A DNA stretch of 64,000 bases from an uncultured Rickettsiales bacterium (lineage in GTDB: Bacteria > Pseudomonadota > Alphaproteobacteria > Rickettsiales > JALZUV01), in NCBI GenBank assembly GCA_964654855.1, contig CAZZJS010000001.1, forward strand, positions 17,772-81,771, in the 5' to 3' direction. The translations under genes were made by a program, and so were the position numbers. Of the stretch, positions 9,714 to 25,351 are shown in pieces (position 1 is the first letter of the stretch; the number at the start of each line of letters is the position of its first letter). The notes beneath the pieces are model-generated. The model saw nothing but the letters and a program-made list of their open reading frames with translations. It was not told the origin of the DNA and did no database searches.

Positions 9714-9908
9714 ATGAACGTAACACGAGTCAATTCTATTAATTCTTATTATAACTTTTTAAACAACAGAGCGGTTCCAGCTAGAGGAGAGTCTCAGCAT
9801 TACCGAGCTTCAACAAATAGTCACCGCTTTGACACAGACATTATTACATTGTCTGCAGAAGCAATTGATTTTTTACAATCCGAGCGTACGACTATTACTA
9901 GTCTTTAG
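9714..9908 (+). CDS. Small hypothetical protein (64 aa), doubtful
   Basis: GAGGG lies 7 nt upstream of the ATG at 9714. The C-terminal DIITLSAEAIDFL resembles the FlgM core motif, but the ORF ends right after it. The 3' end overlaps the convergent NRPS stop by 11 nt. Confidence 0.3.
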   Translation: MNVTRVNSINSYYNFLNNRAVPARGESQHYRASTNSHRFDTDIITLSAEAIDFLQSERTTITSL

Positions 9909-12900
9909 AGGCAATCAGCTGGGTTAAGTAAGAAATATAATGTCGGCTGAGTTCTTCTATTGTTTCCGTATTGAAGCGACTATTACTGTAAGTAAAGTGC
10001 AGCTTTAGGCACTTATTGACAATCGCTGCTTCGATATAGAGTCCATAACATAGAGGATTACTCGGCGCTGATGAAACTATCCCAGCTGGTTCGCCTTGAG
10101 GAGTAATAGATAAGCCTTCAGGTAATAATGCGTCAATTTGACTCACATAGTTAAAGAAGAGTTGCGGTGTTGGGTGCTGGGTAATAGCTGAGTCTCTCGC
10201 AGTATAACGCAATAAATTGTAAGCTTCATTTCGTGCAGGAATTTGTTCGAGCTGCTGTTTGATAGCATCAACATCACCCACTTCCAGATAGGCTGGGTAG
10301 ACTGTATTCACCCATCCCACAGTACGCGATAGATTAATGCCATCAGATCCATTACGTCCATGCCCACAGAGGTTGACCAGCATTTCTGATTTGCCTGTCC
10401 ATTCTCGAATAGTCTGACTTAGGGCAGTGAGCAAAGTATCTTGAATTTGCCACCCTTTCTCTGCAGGTAAATCTTTCAGCAGCGCGCCAGTGAGAGATTC
10501 GTCCAGTGTGGTTTTATGTGTATGAGCAGAAGCTTCATCAGCTGTATCATCCACTCTATCGTAAGGTAGCTCCGGTACGGGGTGCATTTTTGCGCTACCC
10601 CAATAGGCCAGCTCTTGCGTGAAATCATCTGTTTCAATTTGCTGCCGTTGCGCTTCGGTCAATTGTTGTATTGAGGTGGTTTTAGCCGCTAATTCCATTT
10701 CTATACCCAACCGAGCGCCTTCATAGCTTTTGAGGAAGTCTTCAAAAATAAGGCGCGAAGAGACCATATCCAGCAGCAAGTGATGCGCGATAATGGCGAG
10801 TTTTCCGCTTTCCTCTCCGGTTTTAAAATGGATAATTCGCAATAATGGCGCAGTCGATAAATCGAGAGATGCTTGCTGTTTATTGATGGTCTCTACCATC
10901 TGAGGTTCTTGCTGCTCGGATGCTAGCGCCGCAATATCGTAAGTGAAGAAATAGGTCACTTGCGGTAGGGTCGAAAGGCATTCTTGCTGCCATTCTCCAT
11001 TCGCATTTTGCGTCAATCGTACCCGCAAATTATCGTGATGCATCAAGACGGTATCAAATGCGGATTTAAGCTGTTCAGGATTGGCGTTATGATCAATATC
11101 AAACCAGAAAAAACGATTCCAGTGATGAGGCTCAACCATACCATCTGCAAAGAATTTTGTTTGGCGTGGTAAGAGTGGATAAGTGCCCTCAATCGCTTCT
11201 TGCGTTGCTTCATTCGCTGCTGCAAAAGGTTGGTCTTGCGCCACGGTTGCTAATTCTGCAATGGTGCGGTGGGTGAAGAGGCTATTGGTTTCTACATAAA
11301 TCCCTTGCTCTTCGGCTGCACATACAAGCTGAATCGCCATGAGCGAGTCGCCGCCCAATTCAAAGAAGCTATCATCCACGCCAATTTTATCTGCTGGCAG
11401 GGTTAGAATCTCTGACCATAATGCGACCAGCTTTGTTTCTGTATCATTACTTGCCGCGCGATAGGCCTTGCGTTTTTGCTGTTTTTGTTCCGGTTTTGGT
11501 AGGGCGTTCCGGTTGATTTTCGCACTGGCGAGTCGTGGGATTTCATCCGCCTCCACATAAAAAGCGGGAGCCATATAAGATGGTAAATTCGCGCAGATAT
11601 GTTTGCGTAACGTTTCTAGCTCGAAGCCTTCTTCAACAACATAATAAGCGGCGAGACGTTTATGTTCGCTACCAATATCAATCACGGCGGTATCTTTAAC
11701 ACCCGCTACTTGTGCCATAACGGCTTCAATCTCTGCCAACTCAATACGGAAGCCGCGAATCTTCACCTGACTATCGATACGCTCTAGATATTCAATTTCG
11801 CCTTGCGAATTAAAACGCGCCAGATCACCGGTTTTATAAAGCCGTGCATTCGTATCTTGCGTGAATGGATCGGCAATAAAACGTTCTGCCGTTAAGTCTG
11901 GCAGATTGACATAACCTTGTGCGACACCAATGCCGCCAATATGCAATTCGCCCGCCACACCCATGGGCATAGGGCGCAATGTTTCATCTAAAATGTAAAG
12001 CGATGTTGCACCTAATGGCCGGCCAATCGGAATAATGGAAGAAGTCGTACTATTCTCACACTTTGTGAAGGCGGAATAAATCGTGCCTTCCGTTGGGCCA
12101 TATACATTATAGAGCGTGCCAGAACATTGCTGATAATAGCGCGTAACCAGGCTTGGCGGCAAGGCTTCCCCTGCTGCAAGCATGTGTTTTAAGCTGCTTA
12201 GCTTACGGTCTTTCAAAACTGCCAGCAAGCTGGTGAGCAGTGAAGGAACCATACAGCTAGTCGTAATCTGATGGGTTTCAATCAGGTCAATCAGATAAGA
12301 CGGATCTTTATAAGATTCGCTATCGGTTAGCACCAAACTTGCCCCAGCACTTAATGGCCAGAAAATCTCCGCAACGGAGACATCAAAGGTAGTATCGGTA
12401 TTTTGCAATATTTTATCAGCTTTAGAGAGAGGGATTTCTTGCTGTAGCCACTTTAGGCGCGGCACTACATTTTCATGCGTTAGGCGTACACCTTTAGGGT
12501 TTCCGGTAGAGCCAGACGTGTAAATAAGATAAGAATCTGCATCTTGCGTTACGGAGGGTAAGTTCTTTGTAGATTGCGATTGCCAACGTTGCTCCTCTAT
12601 CAATAAAGTGGCCACCTCTTCGGCGGGGAGCTTCTCCTTCAAGTTCGTTTGCGTGATGACATGATCACATCCAGAATCTTGCAAAATATAGGCGATGCGC
12701 TTAGCCGGATAATCAGGCGAAAGTGGAACATAAGCCGCGCCGGCTTTCATAATAGCCAGCAAGCTAGTGATAAGATTTGCCCCGCGCTCTAATAGTATGG
12801 CGACTTTATCGCCTTTTTTAACGTCCTCTGCTTGAAGTTGACGCGCCAACTGATTGGCTTGCTCATTGAGTGTTTGATAGGAAAATTGTTTACCGTCTTC

Positions 12901-14379
12901 AATTAGAGCGATGGCATTTGGCTGTTTCGCAGCGGCTTGTTCAAATAAGTCGGTGATTGATGATTTAGCATTGATGTCTAACGCTTTATCAGCTTGCCCC
13001 CATTGGTTTAATAACTTCTTTTCTTGCGTAAGAGACAGCAATAAAAACTCATTTATGCCTCTCTCAGGGTTTTCGATGATTTGTTCAAAAAGACTCTGCA
13101 TTTGCTCGATAAGCTGACTGATAAATTCAGGCTCAAACAAGGCTTGGCGATATTCAAACCATAGGCCAATACAGCCATCTTCCAGATTCTCGTAAGAAAG
13201 AGAGAGGTCATCATTTACATCATTATAGGTCACTTCTAATGGTTCCGACTCAATGCCCTCGATACGCAAATTCACCAGACGTGAGATCGTTTGCGCCATT
13301 GAAAGATTAAACACACGCCCATCAAATTCAGAATTTTCACGGCGAATGCCTCGGACAATCTCTAGCGCGGGAAATTCTTGATGCTGCTTATCGGCCTTGC
13401 GCGAGGCGGAGATACGGTCCACCAGCGCATTGAAAGTAGGGTTGCCCGAACTATCAATGCGTAATGGCACGATATTGACGAAGAAGCCAAAAAGGTGCTT
13501 ATAGCCAGGCGGGCGGATATTGACGGGATAGCCAATGGTCAGATCATCTTGCCCATAGAGCCTGTTTACCATGGTGGCGAGTGCAGCACTTAACACATTA
13601 AAGAAGGTCGTGCGCTGGCTGCGTGCATAGCGTTTAAGTTTGCCAGAGAGTTCTTCCTCTAAATTGAAATAAACACGCTTTCCGCTCTTACTCTCGCTTT
13701 GGGGTGCAATGCCGTGATTGAAATTAACCGTATGCTGCGCTCCTTTGAGACGCTCTTGCCAATAGGTCGCCGCCTCGGGAGTTTCTTTGGGGGGGTGTTC
13801 GGTGAAATATTCATCCCAGCTTTTCTGCGTAGCACCATAGGCTTCTACCAAACCATCGAATCCTTTTTCATAAGCAATCGAAGCTGCCTCTAAAAATAGA
13901 ACCGCAGAAGCGCCATCGGAAATCATATGTGGTACCATACCAATGAAATAATGTACTTCAGGTGCCGTTTTAATAAGCCCCGCATGCACGATAGGAAATT
14001 GCTTTAAGTCAACGGGAGTGGCCACTTTGCGTGCGAGGAAATCAATCGCCTGTTGGTGCTGCTGCGGCGTTTCGTCTGATTGTCCAGGAATCGAAATATC
14101 TTCAAATTCCATCGCGAAAACAGCTTCGGGCTTTTCGCATTGAAAAGGTACGCCTTTTTCTTCCGCGAAATAAATACGCAATGAGCTGAAGAAATTCACC
14201 GCATCATAAAGGGCTTTTTCAAAACGCTCTTTATCAAGTGGCCCCGTCAAACGAAGATTCACGCATGTATTGTAAGAAGTGTTTTTAGGGTGCAGCTTCC
14301 ACTCCACCCACAAGCCTTCTTGCTGCTTGGTGAGCGGATAGCGCTTTTCTTCTAATACGGTATTTTTAAGCGCTGTCAT
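9898..14379 (-). CDS. Non-ribosomal peptide synthetase, single module C-A-T-C
   Basis: N-terminal condensation domain (PHMISDG variant of HHxxxDG). Adenylation cores are LKAGAAYVPL, YTSGSTGNPKG, FDVSV, NVYGPTE, GELHIGG, YKTGD, GRIDSQVKIRGFRIE and the A10 Lys in SAKINR. The thiolation motif is FFELGGDSL. The C-terminal second condensation domain has HHLLLDM. There is no TE domain. Confidence 0.95.
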   Translation of the reverse strand: MTALKNTVLEEKRYPLTKQQEGLWVEWKLHPKNTSYNTCVNLRLTGPLDKERFEKALYDAVNFFSSLRIYFAEEKGVPFQCEKPEAVFAMEFEDISIPGQSDETPQQHQQAIDFLARKVATPVDLKQFPIVHAGLIKTAPEVHYFIGMVPHMISDGASAVLFLEAASIAYEKGFDGLVEAYGATQKSWDEYFTEHPPKETPEAATYWQERLKGAQHTVNFNHGIAPQSESKSGKRVYFNLEEELSGKLKRYARSQRTTFFNVLSAALATMVNRLYGQDDLTIGYPVNIRPPGYKHLFGFFVNIVPLRIDSSGNPTFNALVDRISASRKADKQHQEFPALEIVRGIRRENSEFDGRVFNLSMAQTISRLVNLRIEGIESEPLEVTYNDVNDDLSLSYENLEDGCIGLWFEYRQALFEPEFISQLIEQMQSLFEQIIENPERGINEFLLLSLTQEKKLLNQWGQADKALDINAKSSITDLFEQAAAKQPNAIALIEDGKQFSYQTLNEQANQLARQLQAEDVKKGDKVAILLERGANLITSLLAIMKAGAAYVPLSPDYPAKRIAYILQDSGCDHVITQTNLKEKLPAEEVATLLIEEQRWQSQSTKNLPSVTQDADSYLIYTSGSTGNPKGVRLTHENVVPRLKWLQQEIPLSKADKILQNTDTTFDVSVAEIFWPLSAGASLVLTDSESYKDPSYLIDLIETHQITTSCMVPSLLTSLLAVLKDRKLSSLKHMLAAGEALPPSLVTRYYQQCSGTLYNVYGPTEGTIYSAFTKCENSTTSSIIPIGRPLGATSLYILDETLRPMPMGVAGELHIGGIGVAQGYVNLPDLTAERFIADPFTQDTNARLYKTGDLARFNSQGEIEYLERIDSQVKIRGFRIELAEIEAVMAQVAGVKDTAVIDIGSEHKRLAAYYVVEEGFELETLRKHICANLPSYMAPAFYVEADEIPRLASAKINRNALPKPEQKQQKRKAYRAASNDTETKLVALWSEILTLPADKIGVDDSFFELGGDSLMAIQLVCAAEEQGIYVETNSLFTHRTIAELATVAQDQPFAAANEATQEAIEGTYPLLPRQTKFFADGMVEPHHWNRFFWFDIDHNANPEQLKSAFDTVLMHHDNLRVRLTQNANGEWQQECLSTLPQVTYFFTYDIAALASEQQEPQMVETINKQQASLDLSTAPLLRIIHFKTGEESGKLAIIAHHLLLDMVSSRLIFEDFLKSYEGARLGIEMELAAKTTSIQQLTEAQRQQIETDDFTQELAYWGSAKMHPVPELPYDRVDDTADEASAHTHKTTLDESLTGALLKDLPAEKGWQIQDTLLTALSQTIREWTGKSEMLVNLCGHGRNGSDGINLSRTVGWVNTVYPAYLEVGDVDAIKQQLEQIPARNEAYNLLRYTARDSAITQHPTPQLFFNYVSQIDALLPEGLSITPQGEPAGIVSSAPSNPLCYGLYIEAAIVNKCLKLHFTYSNSRFNTETIEELSRHYISYLTQLIASKD

Positions 14380-14439: not shown

Positions 14440-15078
14440 TTAAAAACAATCCATCTGATAGATCGCTTCTGCTCTCTTACCCGTTTGATCGCTATCAGTA
14501 AAGAGCATGAGGGCGCGTAAAGGGTAGGGTGGTCTCTCGCCAAATAGTTTGATGAGATCATTTTGCACGTTGCGTGATTCAGTCTGCCATTGCTGCAAAG
14601 GACTTTGTTTATTTTGCAGTAAGATGCGTTTTTGCGTGCCGTGACGATTTTTTGGAGTGTTAAGCACCGCCCCTATCGGATCATTTTGCGCTGCCCATAC
14701 ATAGGATAACATATGAAAATCATTTTTGAAAAAGTCAGAACCTTCATGCTCGCTATAAATTAAATGCACAGAAGCGGCGAAATCTTCATGTTCTTTGCTT
14801 TCAATATCCACTTTAGGGTGCGCCTTTAGAACCTTCCAGCGCCAGTTTAATATGCCGTCATTGAGGCATTTTTGAGGGGTCATTTTCACAAGGCCGCTTG
14901 CAGTTGCTTCACCTGTAATAGCATGAACTCTTTTTTCATCACCTTCTGATTTTAATAGGTATTGAGTGGGCTCGCTTGTGAAGGTAATGACGTCACCCAA
15001 TGGGTGCTTGGTTTGTTCGGGGCCAAAAAACGCACTCAACATGATGAATGAAGCAATTAAGAGAGAGTGTCGCCACAT
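14440..15078 (-). CDS. DUF3047-like secreted protein
   Basis: Signal-like N-terminus MWRHSLLIASFIMLSAFF. The motif LNWRWKVL...EDFAASVHLIY fits the DUF3047 pattern. The start chosen at 15078 lies 1 nt after the arsC stop. Confidence 0.5.
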   Translation of the reverse strand: MWRHSLLIASFIMLSAFFGPEQTKHPLGDVITFTSEPTQYLLKSEGDEKRVHAITGEATASGLVKMTPQKCLNDGILNWRWKVLKAHPKVDIESKEHEDFAASVHLIYSEHEGSDFFKNDFHMLSYVWAAQNDPIGAVLNTPKNRHGTQKRILLQNKQSPLQQWQTESRNVQNDLIKLFGERPPYPLRALMLFTDSDQTGKRAEAIYQMDCF

Positions 15079-15079
15079 A

Positions 15080-15550
15080 TTACAAACTTCCAATCTTCGT
15101 GAGTGCGGCTAAATGTAATCTCTCTGCTTCATCCAAATCCAGAAAGGCTAAGATTCTTTTTTCTAAAATCTTGAAAACACGTAGAAACTCCGCGTGCTTT
15201 TCTTCCTCTGTCCCTTCAAAATAGGCGGGATCTTCGACATCCCAGTGAGTTTTGAGAGCAGAGTTTAGAAAAACAGGGCAGTTTTCATTTGCGGCGGAGC
15301 CACATACCGTCACCACTAAATCAACAGGCTGGGTAATGTTATCCCACGACTTGCTGTGAAAGCCTTGCGTTGAAATTGAATTCGCTTCTAGTGTTTTTAA
15401 AGCTAATGGGTGCACCTTACCAGTCGGTTGGCTACCCGCACTAAAGGCTTTTAATGTCTTAGCGCCATGATGATTCAGCAATGCTTCTGCCATAATGCTA
15501 CGGCATGAATTACCGGTGCATAAAACAAGAATAGAGAGCGGTTGATTCAT
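15080..15550 (-). CDS. arsC: Arsenate reductase, LMW-PTP/thioredoxin-coupled type
   Basis: P-loop CTGNSCRS plus the downstream Cys pair CGSAANENCP reproduce the Cys10/Cys82/Cys89 triad of pI258-type ArsC. A DP motif is also present. Confidence 0.85.
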   Translation of the reverse strand: MNQPLSILVLCTGNSCRSIMAEALLNHHGAKTLKAFSAGSQPTGKVHPLALKTLEANSISTQGFHSKSWDNITQPVDLVVTVCGSAANENCPVFLNSALKTHWDVEDPAYFEGTEEEKHAEFLRVFKILEKRILAFLDLDEAERLHLAALTKIGSL

Positions 15551-15552
15551 TA

Positions 15553-16281
15553 TTACTTAGAATTGAGCTTCCAATTATATTTCAAATAGCCATCTACTTC
15601 AGCATCAGCAGGGACATTTGCATTATATTGACGTAAGAAAGCGACAAGCTCTTTCTCATTACCGAAATCTTCATCGAACCAGTCAAAGATTTTAGACAGT
15701 TTGATATCCTTACCTGTTAGCACCATGCCTTTAGTGGTGTCTTTCAGCAAGAGTTCGGTTTGCTCTTTTAACTGCGATTCCAGCTTATCGGCGCTGTAAG
15801 CTTCGGCACGCAAGTCAGGGCACGAAAGAGACGCACAGTTAATCGCCATATGGATGCGTGGTTCATTCATTTTACGCAAAATTTTATGTTCAATTGCATC
15901 AAGCGTGTATTCTTTGCCATGGAGCGCCCATTTAAACTTTTTCCAGGGATTTTTTAAAACACTCCCAAGATTGCGGATACTATCGGTTTCTTTCTCACGC
16001 GTGATAAGATCAATCGTAAGGAAATTATAAGCATTCATCCAATAGACAAGTTTCTCGCTGCGAGAGGCTGGCACTTTTAAAGTTTGCAGTGCGCTCAGTG
16101 CTTTATTGTGGCGAGCATCATTGCCCCATGCTTGGTAATTTACCAAATTGGCGTTGATACTTTGCTTCTTTCCGGTACTGACATAGTCTTTCAATAAACC
16201 ATCATAAAGCGTTGCAAAATTCTCCGCGGCGTTAGCTGGCAGAGAGAATAGAAGAAAAATAATAAATAAAAATTGTTTCAT
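15553..16281 (-). CDS. DUF547 domain protein (secreted)
   Basis: Signal peptide. Characteristic DUF547 motifs YWMNAYNFLTI and HMAINCASLSCPDL are present. Confidence 0.75.
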   Translation of the reverse strand: MKQFLFIIFLLFSLPANAAENFATLYDGLLKDYVSTGKKQSINANLVNYQAWGNDARHNKALSALQTLKVPASRSEKLVYWMNAYNFLTIDLITREKETDSIRNLGSVLKNPWKKFKWALHGKEYTLDAIEHKILRKMNEPRIHMAINCASLSCPDLRAEAYSADKLESQLKEQTELLLKDTTKGMVLTGKDIKLSKIFDWFDEDFGNEKELVAFLRQYNANVPADAEVDGYLKYNWKLNSK

Positions 16282-16359: not shown

Positions 16360-17052
16360 ATGAAACAAAATATTCTTAAAATTGGGTTGGTGCTCGTTGC
16401 GTTAGCAGCGATTATTGGCTTTTTCGCATTTGATTTGCATCAGCATTTTACATTGGAAAATATTAAAGCACAGCGTGAGGGGTGGGGAGCTTTTTACCAA
16501 GAGCATACGTTACTAACCCTCGCTATTTTTGGAGCGATATATGTGACGGTTACGGCTCTATCGTTACCTGCAGCGAGTATTTTAACATTGCTCGCAGGGG
16601 CGTTATTCGGCTTTATCACAGGTTTGATTATGGTGAGCTTTGCAAGCTCGATTGGCGCTACACTTGCTTTTTTAATGGCACGGTTCGTTCTGCGTGATTC
16701 TATCCAGAGTAAATACGGAAAGTATCTCACCAAAATTAATGACGGATTTGAAAAAGAAGGTGCGTTCTATCTATTCGCTTTACGTTTAGTGCCCGCGATG
16801 CCGTTTTTCGTGGTGAATATTTTGATGGGGCTATTGCCAATTAAAACCTTCACTTTTTATTGGGTAAGCCAAATAGGCATGCTCGCAGGTACGGCGGTTT
16901 ATGTTTATGCAGGTACCGAGTTAGGGAAAATTGAAAGCTTGGCCGATATTGCCTCTCCCACTCTAATTGCTGCTTTTATCGCATTGGGAGTTTTCCCTAT
17001 CATCGCAAAGAAACTCCTCGGATTATTACGAAAAGGAAAAACAGATGCCTAA
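16360..17052 (+). CDS. TVP38/TMEM64 (DedA-related) family membrane protein
   Basis: Polytopic membrane protein with the family motif region FGAIYVTVTALSLPAASILTLLAGALFG. The ATG at 16360 is chosen over the longer ORF. The 3' end overlaps the next gene by 8 nt. Confidence 0.85.
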   Translation: MKQNILKIGLVLVALAAIIGFFAFDLHQHFTLENIKAQREGWGAFYQEHTLLTLAIFGAIYVTVTALSLPAASILTLLAGALFGFITGLIMVSFASSIGATLAFLMARFVLRDSIQSKYGKYLTKINDGFEKEGAFYLFALRLVPAMPFFVVNILMGLLPIKTFTFYWVSQIGMLAGTAVYVYAGTELGKIESLADIASPTLIAAFIALGVFPIIAKKLLGLLRKGKTDA

Positions 17053-18472
17053 ATATGATTATAATTTAATTGCCATTGGTGCCGGTGCTGGTGGATTAGT
17101 TTCCACTTATATTGGCGCAGCGGTGAAAGCCAAAGTTGCCCTGATTGAACGCCATAAAATGGGCGGTGATTGCCTCAATACGGGCTGTGTGCCAAGTAAG
17201 GCTTTGCTGCGTTCAGCTAAGATGATGTCTTATGCCAAGCGTGCTGAAGAGTTTGGCTTTAAAAGCACAAAGATCGAGTTTGATTTTGCGGATGTTATGG
17301 CGCGTGTGCAAGATGTCGTTAAAGCGATTGAGCCGCATGATTCGGTTGAGCGTTACGAAGGCCTCGGCGTGAATTGTTATACGGGTGAAGCCAAAATTCT
17401 CGACCCGCATACGGTGGAGGTAAATGGTGAGAAACTTACCGCGCGCGCGATTATTGTTTCTACAGGCGCGCGTCCACTCGTGCCGCCTATTCCGGGTTTA
17501 GCCGATATTGATTATCTCACGAGTGATAATTTATGGAACTTGAAGAAACTTCCTAAGCGCTTGACTGTATTAGGCGGTGGGCCTATCGGCTCCGAAATGG
17601 CGCAAGCTTTTGCACGTTTAGGATCGCGGGTGACAATTGTTGAAATGGCACCGCAAATTTTGATTCGAGAAGATGAAGAGGTGATTGATCTGGCCGTTGA
17701 GCAATTTGAAGCGGATGGCATTACTATTTTGACAGGCCATAAGGCCAAAGCCTTTGAAAAAGGTAAAGTCATTTGTGAGCATGAAGGCAAAGATGTTGAA
17801 GTCGAGTTTGACGAAGTGATTGTAGCGCTTGGTCGTCGCGCCAATGTCAAAGGTTTCGGGCTAGAAGAACTGGGCGTGAAGCTGAGTGATCGCGGTACAA
17901 TTGAAGCGAACCCTTATTTGCAAACCAACATCCCAAGCATTTATGTGTGCGGCGATGTGACAGGCCCTTATCAATTCACCCATACGGCAGCGCATCAAGC
18001 ATGGTATGCTAGCGTAAATGCCTTATTCTCTCCATTTAAGAAGTTCAAAGTTGATTACTCGGTCATCCCTTGGGCGACTTTTACTGACCCTGAAGTGGCG
18101 CGTGTTGGTTTAAATGAGAAAGATGCTAAAGCGCAGAACATTCCTTATGAGGTGACAAAATATGGCATTGATGATTTAGACCGTGCCATTGCCGATAGTA
18201 GCGCTCATGGTTTCGTCAAAGTGTTGACCGTTCCGGGTAAAGATAAGATTCTCGGTGCGACCATCGTTGGGCATCATGCGGGTGATATTATCGCCGAATA
18301 TGTGATGGCGATGAAACATGGGCTTGGCATGAATAAGATTCTCGGTACGATTCATATTTATCCGACCCTTGCCGAAGCCAATAAGTTCGCCGCGGGCGAA
18401 TGGAAAAAAGCTAATGCACCAGAATGGTTGTTAGGATGGGTTGAAAAATTCCATGCATGGCGCCGTAAATAG
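17045..18472 (+). CDS. FAD-dependent pyridine nucleotide-disulfide oxidoreductase (mercuric reductase / lipoamide dehydrogenase-like)
   Basis: GxGxxG motif IAIGAGAGG, redox-active disulfide GGDCLNTGCVPSK, a second NAD(P) fold VLGGGPIGSE, and a C-terminal His...Glu dimer-interface motif HIYPTLAE. Confidence 0.9.
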   Translation: MPKYDYNLIAIGAGAGGLVSTYIGAAVKAKVALIERHKMGGDCLNTGCVPSKALLRSAKMMSYAKRAEEFGFKSTKIEFDFADVMARVQDVVKAIEPHDSVERYEGLGVNCYTGEAKILDPHTVEVNGEKLTARAIIVSTGARPLVPPIPGLADIDYLTSDNLWNLKKLPKRLTVLGGGPIGSEMAQAFARLGSRVTIVEMAPQILIREDEEVIDLAVEQFEADGITILTGHKAKAFEKGKVICEHEGKDVEVEFDEVIVALGRRANVKGFGLEELGVKLSDRGTIEANPYLQTNIPSIYVCGDVTGPYQFTHTAAHQAWYASVNALFSPFKKFKVDYSVIPWATFTDPEVARVGLNEKDAKAQNIPYEVTKYGIDDLDRAIADSSAHGFVKVLTVPGKDKILGATIVGHHAGDIIAEYVMAMKHGLGMNKILGTIHIYPTLAEANKFAAGEWKKANAPEWLLGWVEKFHAWRRK

Positions 18473-18496: not shown

Positions 18497-19528
18497 ATGA
18501 CCATTACCCAAAGCGTGAAAGATTATTACGGCGAAGTGCTGAAAACGAAGGAAGATTTACTCACCAGCGCGTGTTGCCCTATTGATGCGATGCCCGCACA
18601 TTTGCGCCCGCTCATGGCTAATATTCATGAAGAAGTGCAAGCAAAATTTTATGGTTGTGGCTCGCCTATCCCGCATGCCTTGGAGGGGCTGACGGTGCTT
18701 GATCTTGGCTGCGGCACAGGGCGCGATGTTTACACCCTTTCGCAATGCGTCGGCGAATCGGGCAAAGTCATCGGCATTGATATGACGGAAAACCAGCTGG
18801 AAGTCGCACGTCGCACCCTAGGCTGGCATATGGATAAATTTGGCTATAAAAAGCCCAATGTCGAGTTCCATCAGGGCTATATCGAACAACTTAGCATGAT
18901 TGAAGATAGCTCGATTGATGTGGTGACTTCCAATTGCGTCATTAATCTTTCGCCCGATAAACCTGCCGTGTTTAAAGAAATTTTCCGCATCTTAAAACCG
19001 GGTGGAGAGCTGTACTTCTCGGATGTCTTTACTGGTCGCCGCGTGCCAGAGGATTTAACCCATGATCCCGTTCTATTTGGCGAATGCCTAAGCGGGGCGC
19101 TCTATGTTGAAGATTTCCGCCGCATGTTGCGTGAAGTCGGTTGTGTCGATTATCGTGTTGTCAGCAGCGGGCCAATTGAATTGCACGATCCAGAAGTGGT
19201 GCGTAAAGCGGGGATGATTGATTTTTACTCCCTTACCATCCGCAGTTTCAAATGCGATTTTGAAGATATTTGCGAAGATTACGGCCAAGTGGCTTATTAC
19301 CAAGGAACCATAGAAAATGCGCCGCATGCCTTCATGCTAGACGATCATCATCTGTTCAAAACAGGCCAACCCGTACCCGTTTGCGGCAATACCGCGCAGA
19401 TGTTGAGCGAGACGCATTACGGTAAACATTTCCGTGTCGAGGGAGATCGTTCCACTCATTACGGTGCGTTTGATTGCTCGCCTGCATTAGCCGGAACCGA
19501 AGCTGCAACTAGCGGAGCTTGCTGCTAA
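18497..19528 (+). CDS. arsM: Arsenite S-adenosylmethionine methyltransferase
   Basis: SAM motif VLDLGCGTGRDV. Conserved ArsM cysteines occur in their typical contexts (TSACCP, FYGCGSP, SNCVINLS, FGECLSGA). The tail is Cys-rich (SGACC). Confidence 0.85.
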   Translation: MTITQSVKDYYGEVLKTKEDLLTSACCPIDAMPAHLRPLMANIHEEVQAKFYGCGSPIPHALEGLTVLDLGCGTGRDVYTLSQCVGESGKVIGIDMTENQLEVARRTLGWHMDKFGYKKPNVEFHQGYIEQLSMIEDSSIDVVTSNCVINLSPDKPAVFKEIFRILKPGGELYFSDVFTGRRVPEDLTHDPVLFGECLSGALYVEDFRRMLREVGCVDYRVVSSGPIELHDPEVVRKAGMIDFYSLTIRSFKCDFEDICEDYGQVAYYQGTIENAPHAFMLDDHHLFKTGQPVPVCGNTAQMLSETHYGKHFRVEGDRSTHYGAFDCSPALAGTEAATSGACC

Positions 19529-19561: not shown

Positions 19562-20350
19562 ATGTTGGAGAATGAATCCGCTCTACGCCTAACTGTTTTT
19601 CTGATCGTGCTCATATTAATATGTGCATGGGAGTGGAAATATCCGAAACGTCACTTAGTATTGGCGCGCACTAAGCGCTGGCCGCGCAATTTGGCTATGG
19701 TCGGGATGGTAACGCTGCTGTTGCGCGTGCTGATTCCCTTCACCGGCGTGATGGCCGCACTGTTTGCTCAACAGCATCAAATAGGATTATTCCACTGGTT
19801 AAAATTGCCTGAGTTTCTGGAGATTCTTCTATCAATTATTTTGCTAGATTTTCTGATTTACGCACAACATTTTGCGTTACACTATATTCCGTTCTTCTGG
19901 CGTTTTCATAAGGTGCATCATACGGATCAAGACGTGGATGTAACGACTGCCCTTCGTTTTCATCCGATTGAGATTATCTTTTCGCTCTTTATCAAGGCGG
20001 CAGCGGTGATTGCTTTAGGGGTACCGCTTATCGCCGTGATTTTGTTTGAAATGATTCTCAGTAGTATGGCAATGTTTAATCATGGCAATATCGCTTTGCC
20101 GCATAAATGGGATAAATGGCTACGCAAAGTAATTGTCACACCCGATATGCATCGCGTACATCATTCCATCTATAGCCGCGAAACCAATAGCAATTTCGGT
20201 TTCAACCTCGCTCTATGGGATAGATTATTTAGAACCTATCAAGCGCAACCTAAAGACGGGCATTTAAAAATGTTCATTGGTTTGAATGAATATCGTCATC
20301 AAGATGGCATTAGTTTTCTGGGCTTGCTATCTATGCCATTCAAGAAATAA
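19562..20350 (+). CDS. Fatty acid hydroxylase / sterol desaturase family membrane di-iron enzyme
   Basis: Three His boxes (HFALH, HKVHH, HRVHH) in a polytopic membrane protein. Confidence 0.85.
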   Translation: MLENESALRLTVFLIVLILICAWEWKYPKRHLVLARTKRWPRNLAMVGMVTLLLRVLIPFTGVMAALFAQQHQIGLFHWLKLPEFLEILLSIILLDFLIYAQHFALHYIPFFWRFHKVHHTDQDVDVTTALRFHPIEIIFSLFIKAAAVIALGVPLIAVILFEMILSSMAMFNHGNIALPHKWDKWLRKVIVTPDMHRVHHSIYSRETNSNFGFNLALWDRLFRTYQAQPKDGHLKMFIGLNEYRHQDGISFLGLLSMPFKK

Positions 20351-20363
20351 GGAGAGTATCACC

Positions 20364-21209
20364 ATGTTAGCCATTATCGGAGGCACGGGCCTTTACCAAA
20401 TTGAAGGATTGCAGGTGCAAGATGAAGTGGTGGTTGAAACGCCATTTGGCGAGCCATCAGCGCCGATTTTCAAAGCCACTTATGGTGAGCATGAGCTGCT
20501 GTTTTTACCCCGCCATGGACAGAATCATCAGTTTTTGCCACATGAGGTGAATTACCGCGCGAATATCTTTGCGCTCAAAGAACTGGGCGCAAAACAATTG
20601 CTCGGCTTTTCGGCGGTAGGTAGTTTGCGTGAAGAAATTCATCCGGGTGATTTTGCCATTCCCTCGCAATATTTCGACTTTGTTAAAGGCAATCGCGAAC
20701 GAACTTTCTTTGGAAATGGTATTGCGGCGCATGTTTCTACGGCAGAACCGGTTTGCGCGAATCTGACTGCATGGGTGGCTGCTAAAGCCGCGCAGATGCA
20801 GCTAAAAATTCATACTGACAAAACCTATGCAGGGGTGGATGGTCCAAGACTTGGCACTAAAGCGGAGAGTCATTTTCTACGCGACGCAGGGTGCGATTTA
20901 GTGGGTATGACCAATGTGCCAGAAGCTTTCCTCGCGCGTGAGGCACAGCTTTGCTATGCGACTATCGGCATCGCAACCGATTATGATTGCTGGATGGATG
21001 ATCCTGCTCAGCATGTAAGTGTGGCTGATGTTATTGCCCGCTATGGCGGAAGCCTCGCCAAAGCGAAGGAGCTTTTACTGGCGTTGTTAGAAACTCCGTT
21101 GCCTGCCATTGATGCGGATTATCGCGAGAGTCTCAAAACATCGCTCCTGACTCCGCTTGGGGCTATCCCCGCTGATAAGCGCGAATGGTTGTCGGTATTG
21201 CAAGCTTAA
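20364..21209 (+). CDS. mtnP: S-methyl-5'-thioadenosine phosphorylase family (purine nucleoside phosphorylase fold)
   Basis: MLAIIGGTGLY..., FLPRHGQNHQFLPHEVNYRANIFALKELG and VGMTNVPE match MTAP. AGGAGA RBS lies upstream at 20350-20355. The physiological substrate here may differ (see findings). Confidence 0.8.
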   Translation: MLAIIGGTGLYQIEGLQVQDEVVVETPFGEPSAPIFKATYGEHELLFLPRHGQNHQFLPHEVNYRANIFALKELGAKQLLGFSAVGSLREEIHPGDFAIPSQYFDFVKGNRERTFFGNGIAAHVSTAEPVCANLTAWVAAKAAQMQLKIHTDKTYAGVDGPRLGTKAESHFLRDAGCDLVGMTNVPEAFLAREAQLCYATIGIATDYDCWMDDPAQHVSVADVIARYGGSLAKAKELLLALLETPLPAIDADYRESLKTSLLTPLGAIPADKREWLSVLQA

Positions 21210-21796
21210 TGGCTTCTATTTCCGTCATCATTCCTCTCGCGCCAGGTGAGCCAAGGCCAGAGGTGTTGCTCGCTTGTTTGCCGCAAGAGGCTGAAATTAT
21301 CCTCTCGCAAGAAGGGGGGCGAGCGTCAAGCCTCAATCAAGGCGCGGCCAAAGCGAGTGGGGAGTATCTATGGTTCCTTCATGCGGATTCAGAGTTGACC
21401 GATGATGGCTGGCATAAGCTGCAGATTGCCATCAAACAAGTGCCGAACGCATTGCATTATTTTGATTTAGCCTTTGCGGGTGGTTCATTTTTTATGCGAT
21501 TAAATGCATGGGGTGCTAATTTTCGTTCGCGTATTTTGGGATGCCCCTTTGGCGATCAAGGCTTTTGCCTTAACCGTTCTGTCTTTGAAGAGCTAGGCGG
21601 ATATCCTAAAGATGTCGCTTATGGCGAAGATCATCTCTTTGTGTGGAAAGCGCGTAAAGCGGGGGTGCAGTTGAACCCTATTGGCGCAACATTAACCACC
21701 AGCCCGCGCAAATATGAAAAATACGGTTGGCTGAGAGTCACGATTCTGCATCAATATTTATGGCTTAAACAAGTGGTCGCGGCGCAATGGAAATAG
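21209..21796 (+). CDS. GT-A fold glycosyltransferase of the 'rSAM/selenodomain-associated transferase 2' type
   Basis: N-terminus SVIIPLAPGE and FLHADSEL (DxD-like), about 195 aa. The start overlaps the MTAP stop (TAATG). It shares gene context with the radical SAM/Cys-rich protein. Confidence 0.7.
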   Translation: MASISVIIPLAPGEPRPEVLLACLPQEAEIILSQEGGRASSLNQGAAKASGEYLWFLHADSELTDDGWHKLQIAIKQVPNALHYFDLAFAGGSFFMRLNAWGANFRSRILGCPFGDQGFCLNRSVFEELGGYPKDVAYGEDHLFVWKARKAGVQLNPIGATLTTSPRKYEKYGWLRVTILHQYLWLKQVVAAQWK

Positions 21797-22449
21797 GCCT
21801 CGGAATATTTGCGAAAACGGCCAGTTTATCGCTCGTTAAAACACGGTTGGCCGCAACGATTGGTGAAGCGAAAGCGCATGAGTTTTATGTGCTCAGCTTG
21901 AAAGCGATTGAACAAATGGCGCAGTCGCTACCTGCCTCTATCCACCCTCATTGGGCGATAGCAGAAGAAGAAGGCTTGTCCGCCGAGCAATGGCAAAATC
22001 TATCTGCATTTTGGACAGGAGAAGGTGATTTAGGCCAGCGTTTGCATCAAGTTTATTTGCGTTTGCAGCAGCAATATGGTGCCGCCATGCTGATTGGCAC
22101 CGATAGTCCGCAGCTGACTCCTACATTATTGGTTGAGGCGCAAAAGCGGCTAGCGGAAAGCCCGCAATCTATTGTTATCTCGCCTTGCGATGATGGCGGC
22201 TTTACCCTCTTCGCCGCAGCCACTGAGATTCCCGCGACTATTTGGCAATCGGTCGAATATAGTCAATCCACCACCTTACAGCAGCTCGCCAATGCATTGG
22301 AAAGTAAGGGAAAGAGTATTTCCTATCTTCCCTCGCAGCAGGATGTCGATGTCGCAGCGGATTTAGAAAAATTACAGCGCCACCTTGCAGAACAGGATGG
22401 AATCCCTTCTGCACAACAGGCGCTATTAGCGTGGTTGAAGAAGCTTTAA
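21787..22449 (+). CDS. DUF2064 / 'rSAM/selenodomain-associated transferase 1' type protein
   Basis: The N-terminal GIFAKTASLSLVKTRLA matches the FAK-x-P-x-x-G-x-VKTRL signature of DUF2064. It overlaps the previous gene by 10 nt. Confidence 0.7.
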   Translation: MEIGLGIFAKTASLSLVKTRLAATIGEAKAHEFYVLSLKAIEQMAQSLPASIHPHWAIAEEEGLSAEQWQNLSAFWTGEGDLGQRLHQVYLRLQQQYGAAMLIGTDSPQLTPTLLVEAQKRLAESPQSIVISPCDDGGFTLFAAATEIPATIWQSVEYSQSTTLQQLANALESKGKSISYLPSQQDVDVAADLEKLQRHLAEQDGIPSAQQALLAWLKKL

Positions 22450-23378
22450 GCCGAACAACTTCCGCCGCCAAGTACGCAGAATTTGGCGCAATGCGGGTGG
22501 TTGAGATAAACTGAATCACTTGCCTCTTTTAAGGTGTTTCCCATCTCAAATTCATCCTCATAGGGCAAGAGAGTACAGGCCAGAACCGTTGGCTTATCGG
22601 CTCCTTTGCGTTTTACGACCATGCGTGAATTTGCGCACATCATATTGTCAGGATGGACGTTTAGAATATCCCAGCAATCGGTCGTAATTTCGGGTACTTC
22701 GGCCTTTTCATCCATTTCGGGAAATAGCATCAGTTCTTTCGGGCTGTTTGCATCGACTTTAACGCCTAGCTCTTTAAATAATGCTGCAAACCCAGCGCGC
22801 AATTCGGCTTCATCTTCGCCCCAGCGGGTGCGCCCTGCAATATCAATCGGGAAGCCTTGGGATGCCAGCCATTGTAGGCCTTTGACCATTGGCTGCCATG
22901 TGCCTAGGCCGCGTTCTTCCTCATGCATGGCTTGCGTGAAATGATCGACAGAAATACGCAGCACCATCTGCTCGCCGTAACGTGCTAGTAAACCCAACAG
23001 CGCCTCTTGCTTATGCTGCATAGGTTTCATCGCATTGGTCAGTACTAGCAATTTAAACCCGCGCTCTAAAATAAGCTCCATCATGGGTAGAATATAGGGG
23101 TTCATAAAGGGCTCGCCGCCCGTAATAGCAATTTCGCGCGTGCCGAGATTATCGCGTTGAATCTCATCCAGATACTCTCGCGTTTCTGCTAATGTCAGAT
23201 AGACTAGCCGATCATTCTTGGGGCTGGATTCAATATAGCAATTTTCGCATTCAATATTGCAAAGCGTGCCCGTATTGAGCCACAAGGTCTCCAGTTTTGG
23301 CAAATCCACCCAAGCGCGCTGCTCGCCTTTGGCGGTCACTTTCGGATTCAAAAATTTTTCTAAATTGGGTTGGCTCAT
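22446..23378 (-). CDS. arsS: Radical SAM / Cys-rich domain protein (arsenosugar biosynthesis ArsS type)
   Basis: CNIECENCY radical-SAM cluster motif near the N-terminus. The C-terminal Cys-rich tail is HCAKFCVLGGGSCSA. The gene is clustered with arsM. Confidence 0.8.
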   Translation of the reverse strand: MSQPNLEKFLNPKVTAKGEQRAWVDLPKLETLWLNTGTLCNIECENCYIESSPKNDRLVYLTLAETREYLDEIQRDNLGTREIAITGGEPFMNPYILPMMELILERGFKLLVLTNAMKPMQHKQEALLGLLARYGEQMVLRISVDHFTQAMHEEERGLGTWQPMVKGLQWLASQGFPIDIAGRTRWGEDEAELRAGFAALFKELGVKVDANSPKELMLFPEMDEKAEVPEITTDCWDILNVHPDNMMCANSRMVVKRKGADKPTVLACTLLPYEDEFEMGNTLKEASDSVYLNHPHCAKFCVLGGGSCSA

Positions 23379-23397: not shown

Positions 23398-24792
23398 TTA
23401 AAACTTCGTGACAAGTTGGCTGAAACCATAAAGCGTTCGGCTTTTCTCAGGCCCGTTAGGAACATTATCGAGAAAATTACCATGAAATAAAGCAGAACCA
23501 CCAATATCCCACCGAACCCTTTTAGGTACGATCCAATGGCGCACTCTAGCATCAATCGTATGGCCAATGAAACGCCCAGAATTGCCCGTCACATCTCGCA
23601 AATTGGCAGCATCTAGCTCATCTGTATCACTATCCAAATAGGCGACCTGATAAGTGATAAAGCCATCGGTACGCTTATTCGGCTGAAACTCAAAGTCGAT
23701 GCCAGGAAGGATGAGGTTGTTTCTGACCAAAGGCCCGTGAATAGAGGTGAAACCAACATCGCCACGTCTTGCACCAAAGAGGCGATCATAGGAGCCGAAA
23801 CGATTATCATTGGGGTTATCATCACCCGTCGCATAATCAAATTCAAAGGCTAAACGAGGCGTCCACGGGGCATCAAATTGATATCCAATTTCTGCATGAA
23901 GTGTTTGCGCCCTTACGTTAATGTCATTGGTATCTGTGGAGGCTGTTGTGGCGCGTCTTTCACCAAATTGATAGCCATATTCGACTTCATAATCCCATTC
24001 GGTGGTTTTAGGCTTTTTGAGTGTACGAAAGCCGAGCGTATAGAGCTCGCGATTGGCGGTATTACGATCATTCGTATCTCTTTCATGCAGGCCATAGGTA
24101 AATAGTTCTAGCTTCGTATCGGGAATGAGGTTCTTTTCATCCGTATAAACCACTCCCCAAAAACCTCGCGAATCATCTCTCTTGTCGAAAGCTTGTCGAT
24201 TATCGGATAAATTTTCGAAATTGCGAGGCTGCGCTCTGACAGGAACGACAAAGAAACTTTCAAATTGATTTCCACTATCAAAATGAGTGCGTAAATGCGC
24301 ACCATCATAGCTATTGATCGTGTTGCGATAGCCATTTCGTTCAATAAAGCGTTCACTGCCGATATCAACTGTTTGGCGGCCTAGTTTTAGCTTTGTGTTT
24401 GTATGTTCGCCAAAAGTTTTACCCAAATGGAAATCGAGATTGGCATTGATAAATTCAAAGCTATTCACAAAGCTGGTTGAAAGAGGTGTTCCTGCATCAT
24501 CCAAATAGCCGCGAGAATCTTGGAGCTCTAAATTCACATCAAACGGTTGAAGTTTGGCTTTTGCGCGAATCAGCGTGCGAATGGCAAGCAACTGGTCGCT
24601 TCCGTTACGCCCAGCACGAAACTGGCCGTCCAATGATTCATAGCGCACCCGGTTTTCACCCTCAAGATGCAGCCAATCGGGAGGGTCCAACGCACTATCG
24701 AGCGTCGGGAGTTTAAATTTTTCATCCGCAGCTTGAGCCTGCATGGCTAGCAGGCTCAGCGCGGTTATCATAAAAACGAAAAATTTATGCGG
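23398..24792 (-). CDS. Outer-membrane beta-barrel, alginate-export (AlgE)-like porin
   Basis: Signal peptide ...LLAMQAQA and N-terminal GENRVRYE motif. The sequence shows an alternating beta-strand pattern and ends in a C-terminal Phe (QLVTKF). The start is uncertain (24792 or 24771). Confidence 0.55.
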   Translation of the reverse strand, partial: PHKFFVFMITALSLLAMQAQAADEKFKLPTLDSALDPPDWLHLEGENRVRYESLDGQFRAGRNGSDQLLAIRTLIRAKAKLQPFDVNLELQDSRGYLDDAGTPLSTSFVNSFEFINANLDFHLGKTFGEHTNTKLKLGRQTVDIGSERFIERNGYRNTINSYDGAHLRTHFDSGNQFESFFVVPVRAQPRNFENLSDNRQAFDKRDDSRGFWGVVYTDEKNLIPDTKLELFTYGLHERDTNDRNTANRELYTLGFRTLKKPKTTEWDYEVEYGYQFGERRATTASTDTNDINVRAQTLHAEIGYQFDAPWTPRLAFEFDYATGDDNPNDNRFGSYDRLFGARRGDVGFTSIHGPLVRNNLILPGIDFEFQPNKRTDGFITYQVAYLDSDTDELDAANLRDVTGNSGRFIGHTIDARVRHWIVPKRVRWDIGGSALFHGNFLDNVPNGPEKSRTLYGFSQLVTKF

Positions 24793-25351
24793 CATTCGCA
24801 GAATCAGCACTCCAACGGTTAGGTAAGAACGCCTCATCTAAAGGCGTTTGTACGATGTGATTAGTGTAGTTTGACATGGTTTTCAATGCCGTTGCTAACA
24901 CAATTTCCAATACATGCTGCTGCGTATAACCCGCACCAAAGAAAGCCTGCATTTGCTCTGCACTTGGTGTACCGCGCGTCTCATTTACGATTTTTGCGAA
25001 TTCACGCAATGCTTCGAATTTTGCATTTGGTAGTGCTGTTTGGTTACGCAAAGCATCCACCACTTCCGCCTCTACGCCTTTCATTTGCGAAATCGTCGTA
25101 TGCGCTGCCATACAATAAGTGCAGCCATTTTGAATATTATTGGTCATTAATACAATCTGGCGCTCAGTCTCGGTAAAGCTGGTTTTATCAACAAAACCAG
25201 AGAGGGCTAAATAACCTTCTAATAAAGCCGGAGCTTCTGCCATTTTGGCGAAAATATTGGGCACAAACCCCATAGAGCCTTGAACATTCTCTAATGTTGC
25301 TTTTGCCTCTTGTGGTGCTGTCTCTACTGTGTGCGTGGTGAATGATGTCAT
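24785..25351 (-). CDS. Carboxymuconolactone decarboxylase / AhpD-like family protein
   Basis: AhpD-core CxxC motif in NGCTYCMAAHT, about 188 aa. Confidence 0.85.
   Translation of the reverse strand: MTSFTTHTVETAPQEAKATLENVQGSMGFVPNIFAKMAEAPALLEGYLALSGFVDKTSFTETERQIVLMTNNIQNGCTYCMAAHTTISQMKGVEAEVVDALRNQTALPNAKFEALREFAKIVNETRGTPSAEQMQAFFGAGYTQQHVLEIVLATALKTMSNYTNHIVQTPLDEAFLPNRWSADSANAA

Follow-up and report, generated by a model that had tools for sequence, protein, structure and literature searches.

Among the organoarsenicals of marine food webs, arsenosugars dominate. To our knowledge, a route to them has been proposed since the 1980s and only two of its enzymes, the methyltransferase ArsM and the radical S-adenosylmethionine (radical SAM) enzyme ArsS, have been assigned experimentally. 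We know of two other routes in which a radical SAM enzyme adds a 5'-deoxyadenosyl group and adenine is then lost through an enzyme of the purine nucleoside phosphorylase (PNP)/MTAN superfamily. In hopanoid side-chain synthesis HpnH, the adenosylhopane synthase, is followed by HpnG, a PNP-family adenosylhopane nucleosidase/phosphorylase; in the futalosine pathway MqnE is followed by MqnB or MTAN. In both cases the second enzyme is encoded nearby. Here we analyse a 64,000-nucleotide stretch of DNA from an uncultured Rickettsiales bacterium (contig CAZZJS010000001.1, hereafter the window), in which genes for a 5'-methylthioadenosine phosphorylase (MTAP), a family 2 glycosyltransferase (GT2) and a DUF2064 protein follow one another at 20364-22449, opposite a convergent radical SAM gene. 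We propose that this trio is a relay leading from an ArsS-type nucleoside to a glycoside, and give this reading a probability of roughly 0.6. It is based on what the genes encode, on their operon arrangement, linkage and co-occurrence, and on protein fold, and the catalytic steps are predictions.

In the proposed relay an ArsM-like enzyme would methylate As(III), and the convergent radical SAM enzyme, as an analogue of ArsS, would add a 5'-deoxyadenosyl radical to the arsenic to give a 5'-deoxy-5'-arsinoyl-adenosine. In the best supported step the MTAP would then phosphorolyse this nucleoside to adenine and an alpha-ribose-1-phosphate derivative. To judge from its fold, the CofC-like DUF2064 protein could link an NMP, taken from an NTP, to the sugar-1-phosphate, yielding an NDP-sugar from which the GT2, belonging to an inverting family, would form a beta-riboside on glycerol, glycerophosphate or a lipid acceptor. 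The alpha configuration of the ribose-1-phosphates that MTAPs release is preserved by nucleotidyl transfer and inverted by GT2 enzymes, and arsenosugars are beta-ribosides; the stereochemistry therefore closes and the relay is chemically coherent. Canonical ArsS is reported to make 5'-deoxy-5'-dimethylarsinoyl-adenosine (DDMAA) in two papers (PMC13598754, PMC12159101), which refer for this to Cheng et al. 2021. Our literature search on enzymes assigned to steps after ArsS or DDMAA found none, and one genome paper only repeats the PGAP names of these families.

Like the ArsM/ArsS pathway of Synechocystis sp. PCC 6803, the window encodes an ArsM-like methyltransferase and a radical SAM protein with a Cys-rich C-terminus, and it has in common with arsenosugar-type clusters a TIGR04283-like GT2, a TIGR04282-like DUF2064 protein, an FAD oxidoreductase, a VTT protein and a DUF547 protein. 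Unlike the Synechocystis pathway, its radical SAM protein fails the ArsS model, its matches to the arsenosugar families are all below cut-off, and its operon includes a phosphorylase. The locus also differs from HpnH/HpnG and MqnE/MqnB in that the proposed acceptor is arsenic instead of carbon, the phosphorylase is of the trimeric MTAP-family type, and a nucleotidyltransferase and a GT2 follow.

The genes for the MTAP (20364..21209), the GT2 (21209..21796) and the DUF2064 protein (21787..22449) are the last three of seven plus-strand operon genes, with that for the ArsM-like methyltransferase further upstream. All three are present where an earlier note, made from the sequence alone, had placed them, and the TAATG junction by which it coupled the MTAP to the next gene is read directly at 21207-21211, where the stop codon TAA (21207-21209) and the start codon ATG (21209-21211) have one A in common. 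The ATG of the MTAP at 20364 is preceded by an AAGGAG box nine nt upstream, just past the stop codon of the FA_hydroxylase-family gene. The stop of the GT2 gene and the start of the DUF2064 gene overlap by 10 nt (ATGGAAATAG), and no terminator-like sites were found within 20364-22449. The order MTAP-GT2-DUF2064 and its tight spacing recur in relatives and in distant bacteria, so that the arrangement is not due to chance. At the far end, the stop codons of the DUF2064 and radical SAM genes overlap at 22446-22449, which leaves no space for a terminator between the two.

Families were placed by profile searches with NCBIfam models, at their curated cut-offs, and with Pfam models; below, G and L numbers denote sampled genomes and examined loci, respectively. 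The window MTAP (PF01048, 1e-36) barely clears the equivalog cut-off of TIGR01694 (275.3 versus 274.85 bits), matches solved archaeal and human MTAPs with E-values of 4e-61 to 9e-52, and is 41-45% identical to housekeeping alphaproteobacterial MTAPs. We aligned 22 cluster-linked and 16 unlinked sequences with human MTAP (1CB0), whose residue numbering is used here and fits the catalytic residues known for that enzyme. As in housekeeping MtnP (human 1CB0, Sulfolobus solfataricus 2A8Y), the phosphate, ribose and Asp-Asp base-binding residues are all kept in the window MTAP (human T18, R60, H61, T93/A94, M196, T197, D220 and D222), T93 being replaced by S, which is also seen in other MTAPs of bacteria and archaea. 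It differs from housekeeping MtnP in its organoarsenical-type operon, in belonging to a separate clade, and in the wall of the base/5' pocket, where Phe177-Ser178 is replaced by L/G, giving GPRLG instead of GP[RQ]FS.

This replacement marks a distinct lineage, which we call the LG clade. GPRLG is found in 18 of the 22 linked MTAPs, including that of the window, together with the further clade traits L68, V172, H230 and Y/F240 (human numbering), while GPQFS or GPRFS is found in 15 of the 16 unlinked sequences, in four linked MTAPs of housekeeping type, in human MTAP, in 2A8Y and in 4GLF. The clade comprises 18/22 linked versus 0/16 unlinked MTAPs, on a branch of length 1.63 with support 99/99. 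Its other members score 262-280 bits on TIGR01694, part of them under the cut-off, and 119 of the 120 closest database homologues of the window MTAP carry GPRLG. Within the clade, Gamma- and Bdellovibrio-type MTAPs nest among alphaproteobacterial sequences, which argues for transfer together with the cluster. Any functional meaning of L/G at 177/178 we infer from sequence. Searching the literature on the roles of human Phe177/Ser178 we found nothing relevant; a paper on Schistosoma mansoni MTAP describes a hydrophobic 5' pocket and a water-anchoring Ser and does not name positions 177/178.

Two MTAP-like genes outside the clusters deserve mention. One, in a Desulfotignum metagenome-assembled genome (MAG; L124 4424-5269), is a lone LG-type copy (GPRLG), 6 kb from genes for spermidine synthase and AdoMet decarboxylase. 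This copy, and the mutual exclusivity of LG-type and housekeeping MTAPs, weakened the idea that the LG motif marks specificity for arsenicals. The other (L100 132-854, G156:C311; 273 bits), which is the sixteenth unlinked sequence, has Asn for the first base-binding Asp and 'GPRLE', falls as a PNP-like outlier on a very long tree branch (5.3-5.8), and may encode a PNP- or MTIP-like enzyme.

The distribution of MTAP further bears on whether it is a pathway or a housekeeping gene. The window MTAP is the sole PNP_UDP_1 gene of a 1.92-Mb, 99% complete genome; a second MTAP elsewhere in this genome was considered and rejected, as no further PNP-family gene was found. The earlier note would have counted a single, strictly MTA-specific enzyme against its own reading. 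Single it is, yet searches of the same genome found no MtnN, no MtnA (MTR-1-P isomerase) and no SpeE (spermidine synthase) either. The gene thus stands outside any methionine-salvage or polyamine context, the ordinary grounds for retaining an MTAP are missing, and single-copy status does not favour a housekeeping role. Among 41 genomes of the window's order, MTAP occurs in 7, a TIGR04282 gene in 7 and both in 6, and in six of the seven MTAP-positive genomes the MTAP is beside or with the cluster. The distance between both genes is less than 1.5 kb in the 5 genomes that have them on one contig; G003 has them on separate short contigs, both ending in a piece of a GT2 gene. The congener G001 has neither. 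A true MtnN is found in only 1/41 genomes, and 34/41 have no MTAP nor, with one exception, MtnN, in an order that presumably still runs housekeeping radical SAM enzymes. Since the order mostly does without both enzymes, and MTAP comes and goes with the cluster and was acquired exactly where the cluster was, the pattern argues against by-product clearance. Two carriers, Cocleimonas flava and G056, retain the cluster MTAP besides a genuine MtnN, and in no genome examined do LG-type and housekeeping MTAPs occur together. This fits a cluster that brings its own MTAP where the host has none, and a pathway that needs MTAP activity.

The earlier note took the convergent gene at 22446..23378 (minus strand) for arsS, and this identification does not hold. 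On the ArsS model TIGR04167, whose cut-off is 300 bits, the protein reaches 63, the match being confined to the N-terminal half (profile positions 6-149), and it has no DUF3641; its best-scoring model is the Rv1681 family, at 87.7 bits versus a cut-off of 380. A search of the protein for PF12345, the DUF3641 Cys-rich C-terminal domain, gave no match; canonical ArsS neighbours of the same trio have this domain. With hhalign, this variant radical SAM protein aligns to canonical ArsS at 98% probability over the N-terminal 144 columns, that is, the radical SAM core only, and a sequence search of solved structures with the family returned generic radical SAM cores only. The family is large and strongly conserved: its members from Alpha-, Gamma- and Zetaproteobacteria, Bdellovibrionales and Latescibacterota share 65-70% identity, with an invariant CX3CX2C (C40, C44, C47), six further invariant C-terminal Cys and the end LNHPHCAKFCVLGGGxCS. 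By eye, both families have in common CNxxCxxC[HY][VI]E[AS]xPK and a C-terminal HCxxC...GxGSxC-like motif (HCxxxC..GGGxC in the variant).

Both types of radical SAM gene accompany the trio. It stands beside the variant in Micavibrio, Bdellovibrionales, Spiribacter insolitus, Cocleimonas flava and Aliidiomarina, and beside canonical ArsS (446-457 bits, DUF3641 present) in G127, G056, Ostreibacterium oceani and Formosimonas. Variant and canonical enzymes thus swap in the same operon slot, which is most simply explained if they are isofunctional. Present in at least 568 species, the variant appears to be a second ArsS-like family, not annotated so far. The trio forms a mobile module, accompanying radical SAM genes of the ArsS type in a wide range of bacteria. 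A gene for a metallophosphoesterase of ~280 aa ('VFGGPYSNL'), which no NCBIfam model matches, is a direct neighbour of the variant radical SAM gene at seven genome loci and is fused to it at four (11/74; for example L037 2-1834, L017 10696-11532 and L097 13318-14088); it is also found beside the canonical ArsS cluster of G056.

Linkage was counted on loci of at least 8 kb. Eighty loci were anchored on the radical SAM family, a sample thereby biased to the variant type, and a metagenome scan anchored on canonical ArsS served as a counterweight. At the variant loci (n=74) MTAP lies within 5 kb in 10, GT2 in 16 and DUF2064 in 14, where by our own estimate ~0.3% would be expected by chance for MTAP. 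At the canonical metagenome loci (n=35) a PNP-family gene is present in 3, GT2 in 11 and DUF2064 in 10. MTAP linkage is hence real, though in a minority of loci. Furthermore, MTAPs of the same LG clade (56-73% identity) occur in single-strand operons with canonical ArsS, as in G056, where the MTAP starts 12 nt past arsS. Seen from the side of the MTAP, four of five diverse close homologues adjoin the GT2-DUF2064 pair and a radical SAM gene, and the fifth is the Desulfotignum copy. The earlier note's idea that an MTAP removes adenine from the product of an ArsS-type enzyme is therefore well supported by linkage, co-inheritance and the presence of the LG clade beside canonical ArsS; against it stands that the window's own radical SAM protein is not canonical ArsS.

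Among 301 genomes of the window's class, 120 have TIGR04282, 90 the variant radical SAM gene, 3 canonical ArsS and 146 MTAP. Genomes with the variant carry TIGR04282 in 87/90 cases and MTAP in 86/90, the four without MTAP being 71-94% complete, and genomes lacking the variant have MTAP in 60/211 cases. In most genomes of the class the cluster genes are dispersed rather than clustered. Related genomes are not independent, and Fisher p-values on these counts were therefore not used as evidence; the correlation between MTAP and the radical SAM gene is consistent with the proposal and not decisive. Thirty TIGR04282-positive genomes of the class had neither the variant nor canonical ArsS at the thresholds used, for which a third partner enzyme or another use of the transferase pair is possible. 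At one locus of a genome without the variant, with no arsM nearby (L005 7848-11049, G017), a gene for a 224-aa QueE-like radical SAM protein (110 bits, cut-off 200) converges on the DUF2064 gene of a trio.

The two transferases are found together in all 14 loci of 14, adjacent in every complete trio locus examined, and their pair adjoins canonical or variant radical SAM genes. The small soluble GT2 (GT-A fold, PF00535) scores 154.3 bits on TIGR04283, under the cut-off of 182, over profile positions 49-209 of 221; its counterpart in L125 scores 147.5 and canonical examples 196-212 bits, and a sequence search of solved structures with it gave nothing useful. The DUF2064 protein (PF09837) misses the TIGR04282 cut-off by 1.2 (132.8 versus 134 bits), and the DUF2064 proteins linked to LG-clade MTAPs in G056, G127 and G160 are likewise under it (117-128 bits). 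NCBIfam names both TIGR04283 and TIGR04282 "arsenosugar biosynthesis glycosyltransferase", so that the transferase roles, an annotation by association, were already implied by the curated names. The sugar-carrying steps that the earlier note gave to both proteins thus agree with linkage, co-occurrence and fold, and are not new.

What the model adds is the probable chemistry of DUF2064. The protein has the invariant motifs K..KTRL, GxDxP and DGG and a weak CofC match, and its AF2 model (pLDDT 94) matches in Foldseek 3cgx (TM 0.85), then the guanylyltransferases 7p97, 6bwg/6bwh and 2i5e, then KdsB, GlmU and IspD. The fold thus resembles guanylyl-, cytidylyl- and uridylyl-transferases acting on phospho-substrates and is that of a nucleotidyltransferase of the CofC/FbiD type. 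With CofC/FbiD and the 3-phospho-D-glycerate guanylyltransferases (2I5E, 6BWG/6BWH, 7P97), and with 3CGX, the protein has in common the fold (TM 0.67-0.85) and K..K[TS]RL/GxDxP/DGG, at 17-23% identity. It differs from them in that no F420 genes lie nearby and that it is partnered by a phosphorylase and a GT2, an arrangement pointing to a sugar-1-phosphate as substrate. "Glycosyltransferase" is therefore probably a misnomer for TIGR04282, one that would misstate its chemistry. In the canonical ArsS cluster L101, a TIGR04282 match lies next to a GT2 match in a 726-aa open frame (G177:C5:8516-9088), which suggests a DUF2064-GT2 fusion.

That the substrate contains arsenic is supported by the ArsM-like gene, in whose translation the four cysteine motifs ACC, YGCG, SNCV and GEC are visible, and by the ArsC-like gene of the window. 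Clusters elsewhere contain ArsB-like, PHO4/PiT, LMWPc and phosphate-porin genes.

Several observations weigh against the relay. The window type of arsM is present in 7/301 genomes of the class versus 90 with the variant radical SAM gene, several clusters with an LG-clade MTAP have no methyltransferase at all, and among five roseobacters in culture that carry both the radical SAM gene and a canonical TIGR04283 match (G345-G349), an ArsM-like gene is missing from three and present in two. We had expected arsM to track the system, which the counts in the class and in the roseobacters (2/5) rule out; with most carriers lacking arsM, "dimethylarsinoyl" may not describe the substrate everywhere. The variant radical SAM protein falls outside the ArsS family as characterised, and in its C-terminal half it cannot be aligned with ArsS. 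MTAP is clustered in a minority of loci (3/35 and 10/74) versus ~20-30% for GT2 and DUF2064, its correlation with the radical SAM gene at genome level is confounded by phylogeny and genome size, and canonical clusters exist in two genomes in which no MTAP was found (G034, 91% complete; G177, 89% complete). The Desulfotignum copy lies near polyamine genes, apparently an ordinary salvage setting, so that the LG motif is a clade trait and no proof of new specificity. The mutual exclusivity of LG-type and housekeeping MTAPs suggests that ordinary MTAP activity is enough and that no new specificity is needed. Finally, CofC-type enzymes act on phospho-acids and not on sugar-1-phosphates, so that the DUF2064 step could concern the aglycone.

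These points feed three other explanations. The MTAP might be an ordinary salvage enzyme that clears MTA or 5'-deoxyadenosine, by-products through which SAM enzymes are inhibited, and recovers adenine, present in the operon because the pathway is SAM-hungry or by hitch-hiking. MTAPs are known to accept 5'-deoxyadenosine, as in the salvage of this nucleoside in Synechococcus elongatus (PMC8102628). An enzyme that passes the equivalog cut-off, keeps canonical catalytic and phosphate-binding residues, is the only MTAP of its genome, looks interchangeable with the housekeeping type with which its clade never co-occurs, and has an LG-type relative near spermidine synthase could do the same. Against this, the 34 of 41 genomes of the order without MTAP and (one exception) MtnN indicate that by-product clearance does not require MTAP there, the window genome has neither SpeE nor MtnA, and Cocleimonas flava and G056 carry the cluster MTAP despite having MtnN. 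Moreover, ArsS-type adenosylation proceeds without stoichiometric release of 5'-deoxyadenosine (PMC13598754), and salvage leaves the conserved overlap with GT2-DUF2064 unexplained. We consider this explanation distinctly unlikely.

An MTAP acting on the adenosylated arsenical could also feed a different relay, in which DUF2064 activates the aglycone or another phospho-acid, or in which the ribose-1-phosphate derivative is dephosphorylated, the GT2 using another donor. CofC and FbiD act on phospholactate, PEP or 3-phosphoglycerate; after 3cgx, the closest characterised folds are indeed guanylyltransferases on phospho-acids, ahead of sugar-1-phosphate enzymes of the GlmU type. Glycerol and glycerophosphoryl groups are among the aglycones known from arsenosugars, and a metallophosphoesterase adjoins or is fused to the radical SAM protein in 11 of 74 loci and stands beside the G056 cluster. 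We nevertheless hold this variant to be unlikely, since a Leloir-type GT2 needs an activated sugar donor that no other member of the trio could make, since the tight coupling of the three genes suits a channelled three-step relay, and since the change from alpha to beta stereochemistry suits an NDP-sugar route. It is more improbable still, in our view, that the module is not for dimethylated arsenic, or not for arsenic at all, the radical SAM enzyme adenosylating inorganic arsenite or another metalloid or chalcogen centre and the trio making a different 5-substituted riboside. The scarcity of arsM relative to the variant and to TIGR04282 (7 versus 90 and 120 of 301), its absence from three of the five roseobacters and from several LG-MTAP clusters, and the C-terminal half that cannot be aligned to ArsS speak for it. 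The ArsM-like gene with its four Cys motifs in the window operon and the ArsC-like gene near it, the arsenic- and phosphate-related genes of clusters elsewhere, and the exchange of variant and canonical enzymes with common motifs beside the same trio speak against it. The relay from an ArsS-type nucleoside through phosphorolysis, sugar activation and glycosyl transfer thus remains our preferred reading.

A broader version of this reading is more tentative, and we regard it as possible though doubtful. The variant family might be a second ArsS-type adenosylating enzyme which, with MTAP, DUF2064 and GT2, forms a very widespread and mostly arsM-independent pathway to 5-substituted beta-ribosides. 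Its substrate would be other than endogenous dimethylarsenite (scavenged methylarsenicals, inorganic arsenite or another element), and the LG-clade MTAP would be a dedicated adenosyl-arsenical phosphorylase and no part of methionine salvage.

Upstream of the trio, the operon opens with a VTT/DedA-TVP38 membrane protein gene (16360..17052, plus strand; PF09335, 5.6e-21), followed on the same strand by genes for an FAD-dependent pyridine nucleotide-disulfide oxidoreductase that is MerA/Lpd-like (17045..18472; NF004991, 501.8 bits, under cut-off; Pyr_redox_2, Pyr_redox_dim), the ArsM-like As(III) SAM methyltransferase (18497..19528; 193.7 bits on the arsenite methyltransferase model NF008823 versus a cut-off of 263; Methyltransf_31) and, directly 5' of the MTAP, a membrane di-iron enzyme of the FA_hydroxylase family (19562..20350; PF04116, 1.8e-28). 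The FA_hydroxylase gene also adjoins MTAP in L011, L096, L122 and L123, and the FAD oxidoreductase and VTT genes are kept in clusters of both the canonical and the variant type. On the minus strand, upstream of the radical SAM gene, lie genes for an Alginate_exp-type outer-membrane barrel (23398..24837; PF13372, 3.2e-49), of which a weak homologue is found near the canonical cluster of L008, and for an AhpD/CMD-like peroxidase-related protein (24785..25351; TIGR01926, 66.2 versus a cut-off of 81.8 bits).

Divergent from the operon, on the minus strand, are a DUF547 gene (15553..16281; PF04784) and a gene for an ArsC-like arsenate reductase of the low-molecular-weight protein tyrosine phosphatase type (15080..15550; TIGR02691, 87.8 versus a cut-off of 174.3 bits). 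Co-directional with these two genes and downstream of them are open reading frames of 217 aa (14440-15093, minus strand) and 1493 aa (9898-14379, minus strand), neither with an NCBIfam match. DUF547 also occurs in the canonical clusters L008 and L101, and in a cluster from Zetaproteobacteria (L013 8214-9635) it is fused to VTT in one 473-aa protein; that cluster has PHO4 and ArsB-like genes and no MTAP. An LMWPc gene lies within the Bdellovibrionales cluster L015.

Taken together, these results partly support the reading from which the analysis started: its core is correct, the identity of the radical SAM enzyme was wrong, and the transferase roles were not new. New here are the assignment of the MTAP and the recognition of its LG clade, the reading of DUF2064 as a nucleotidyltransferase, and a second family of ArsS-like enzymes. 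For each of the missing steps (loss of adenine, activation of the sugar, glycosyl transfer) the locus and its relatives point to one candidate enzyme, and cultivable carriers exist in Cocleimonas flava, Aliidiomarina, Ostreibacterium oceani, Spiribacter insolitus and roseobacters. In the sampled class the second ArsS-like family is far commoner than canonical ArsS (90 versus 3 of 301 genomes). If the proposal is true, the bacterial capacity for arsenosugar-type chemistry would be far wider than arsS-based surveys indicate.

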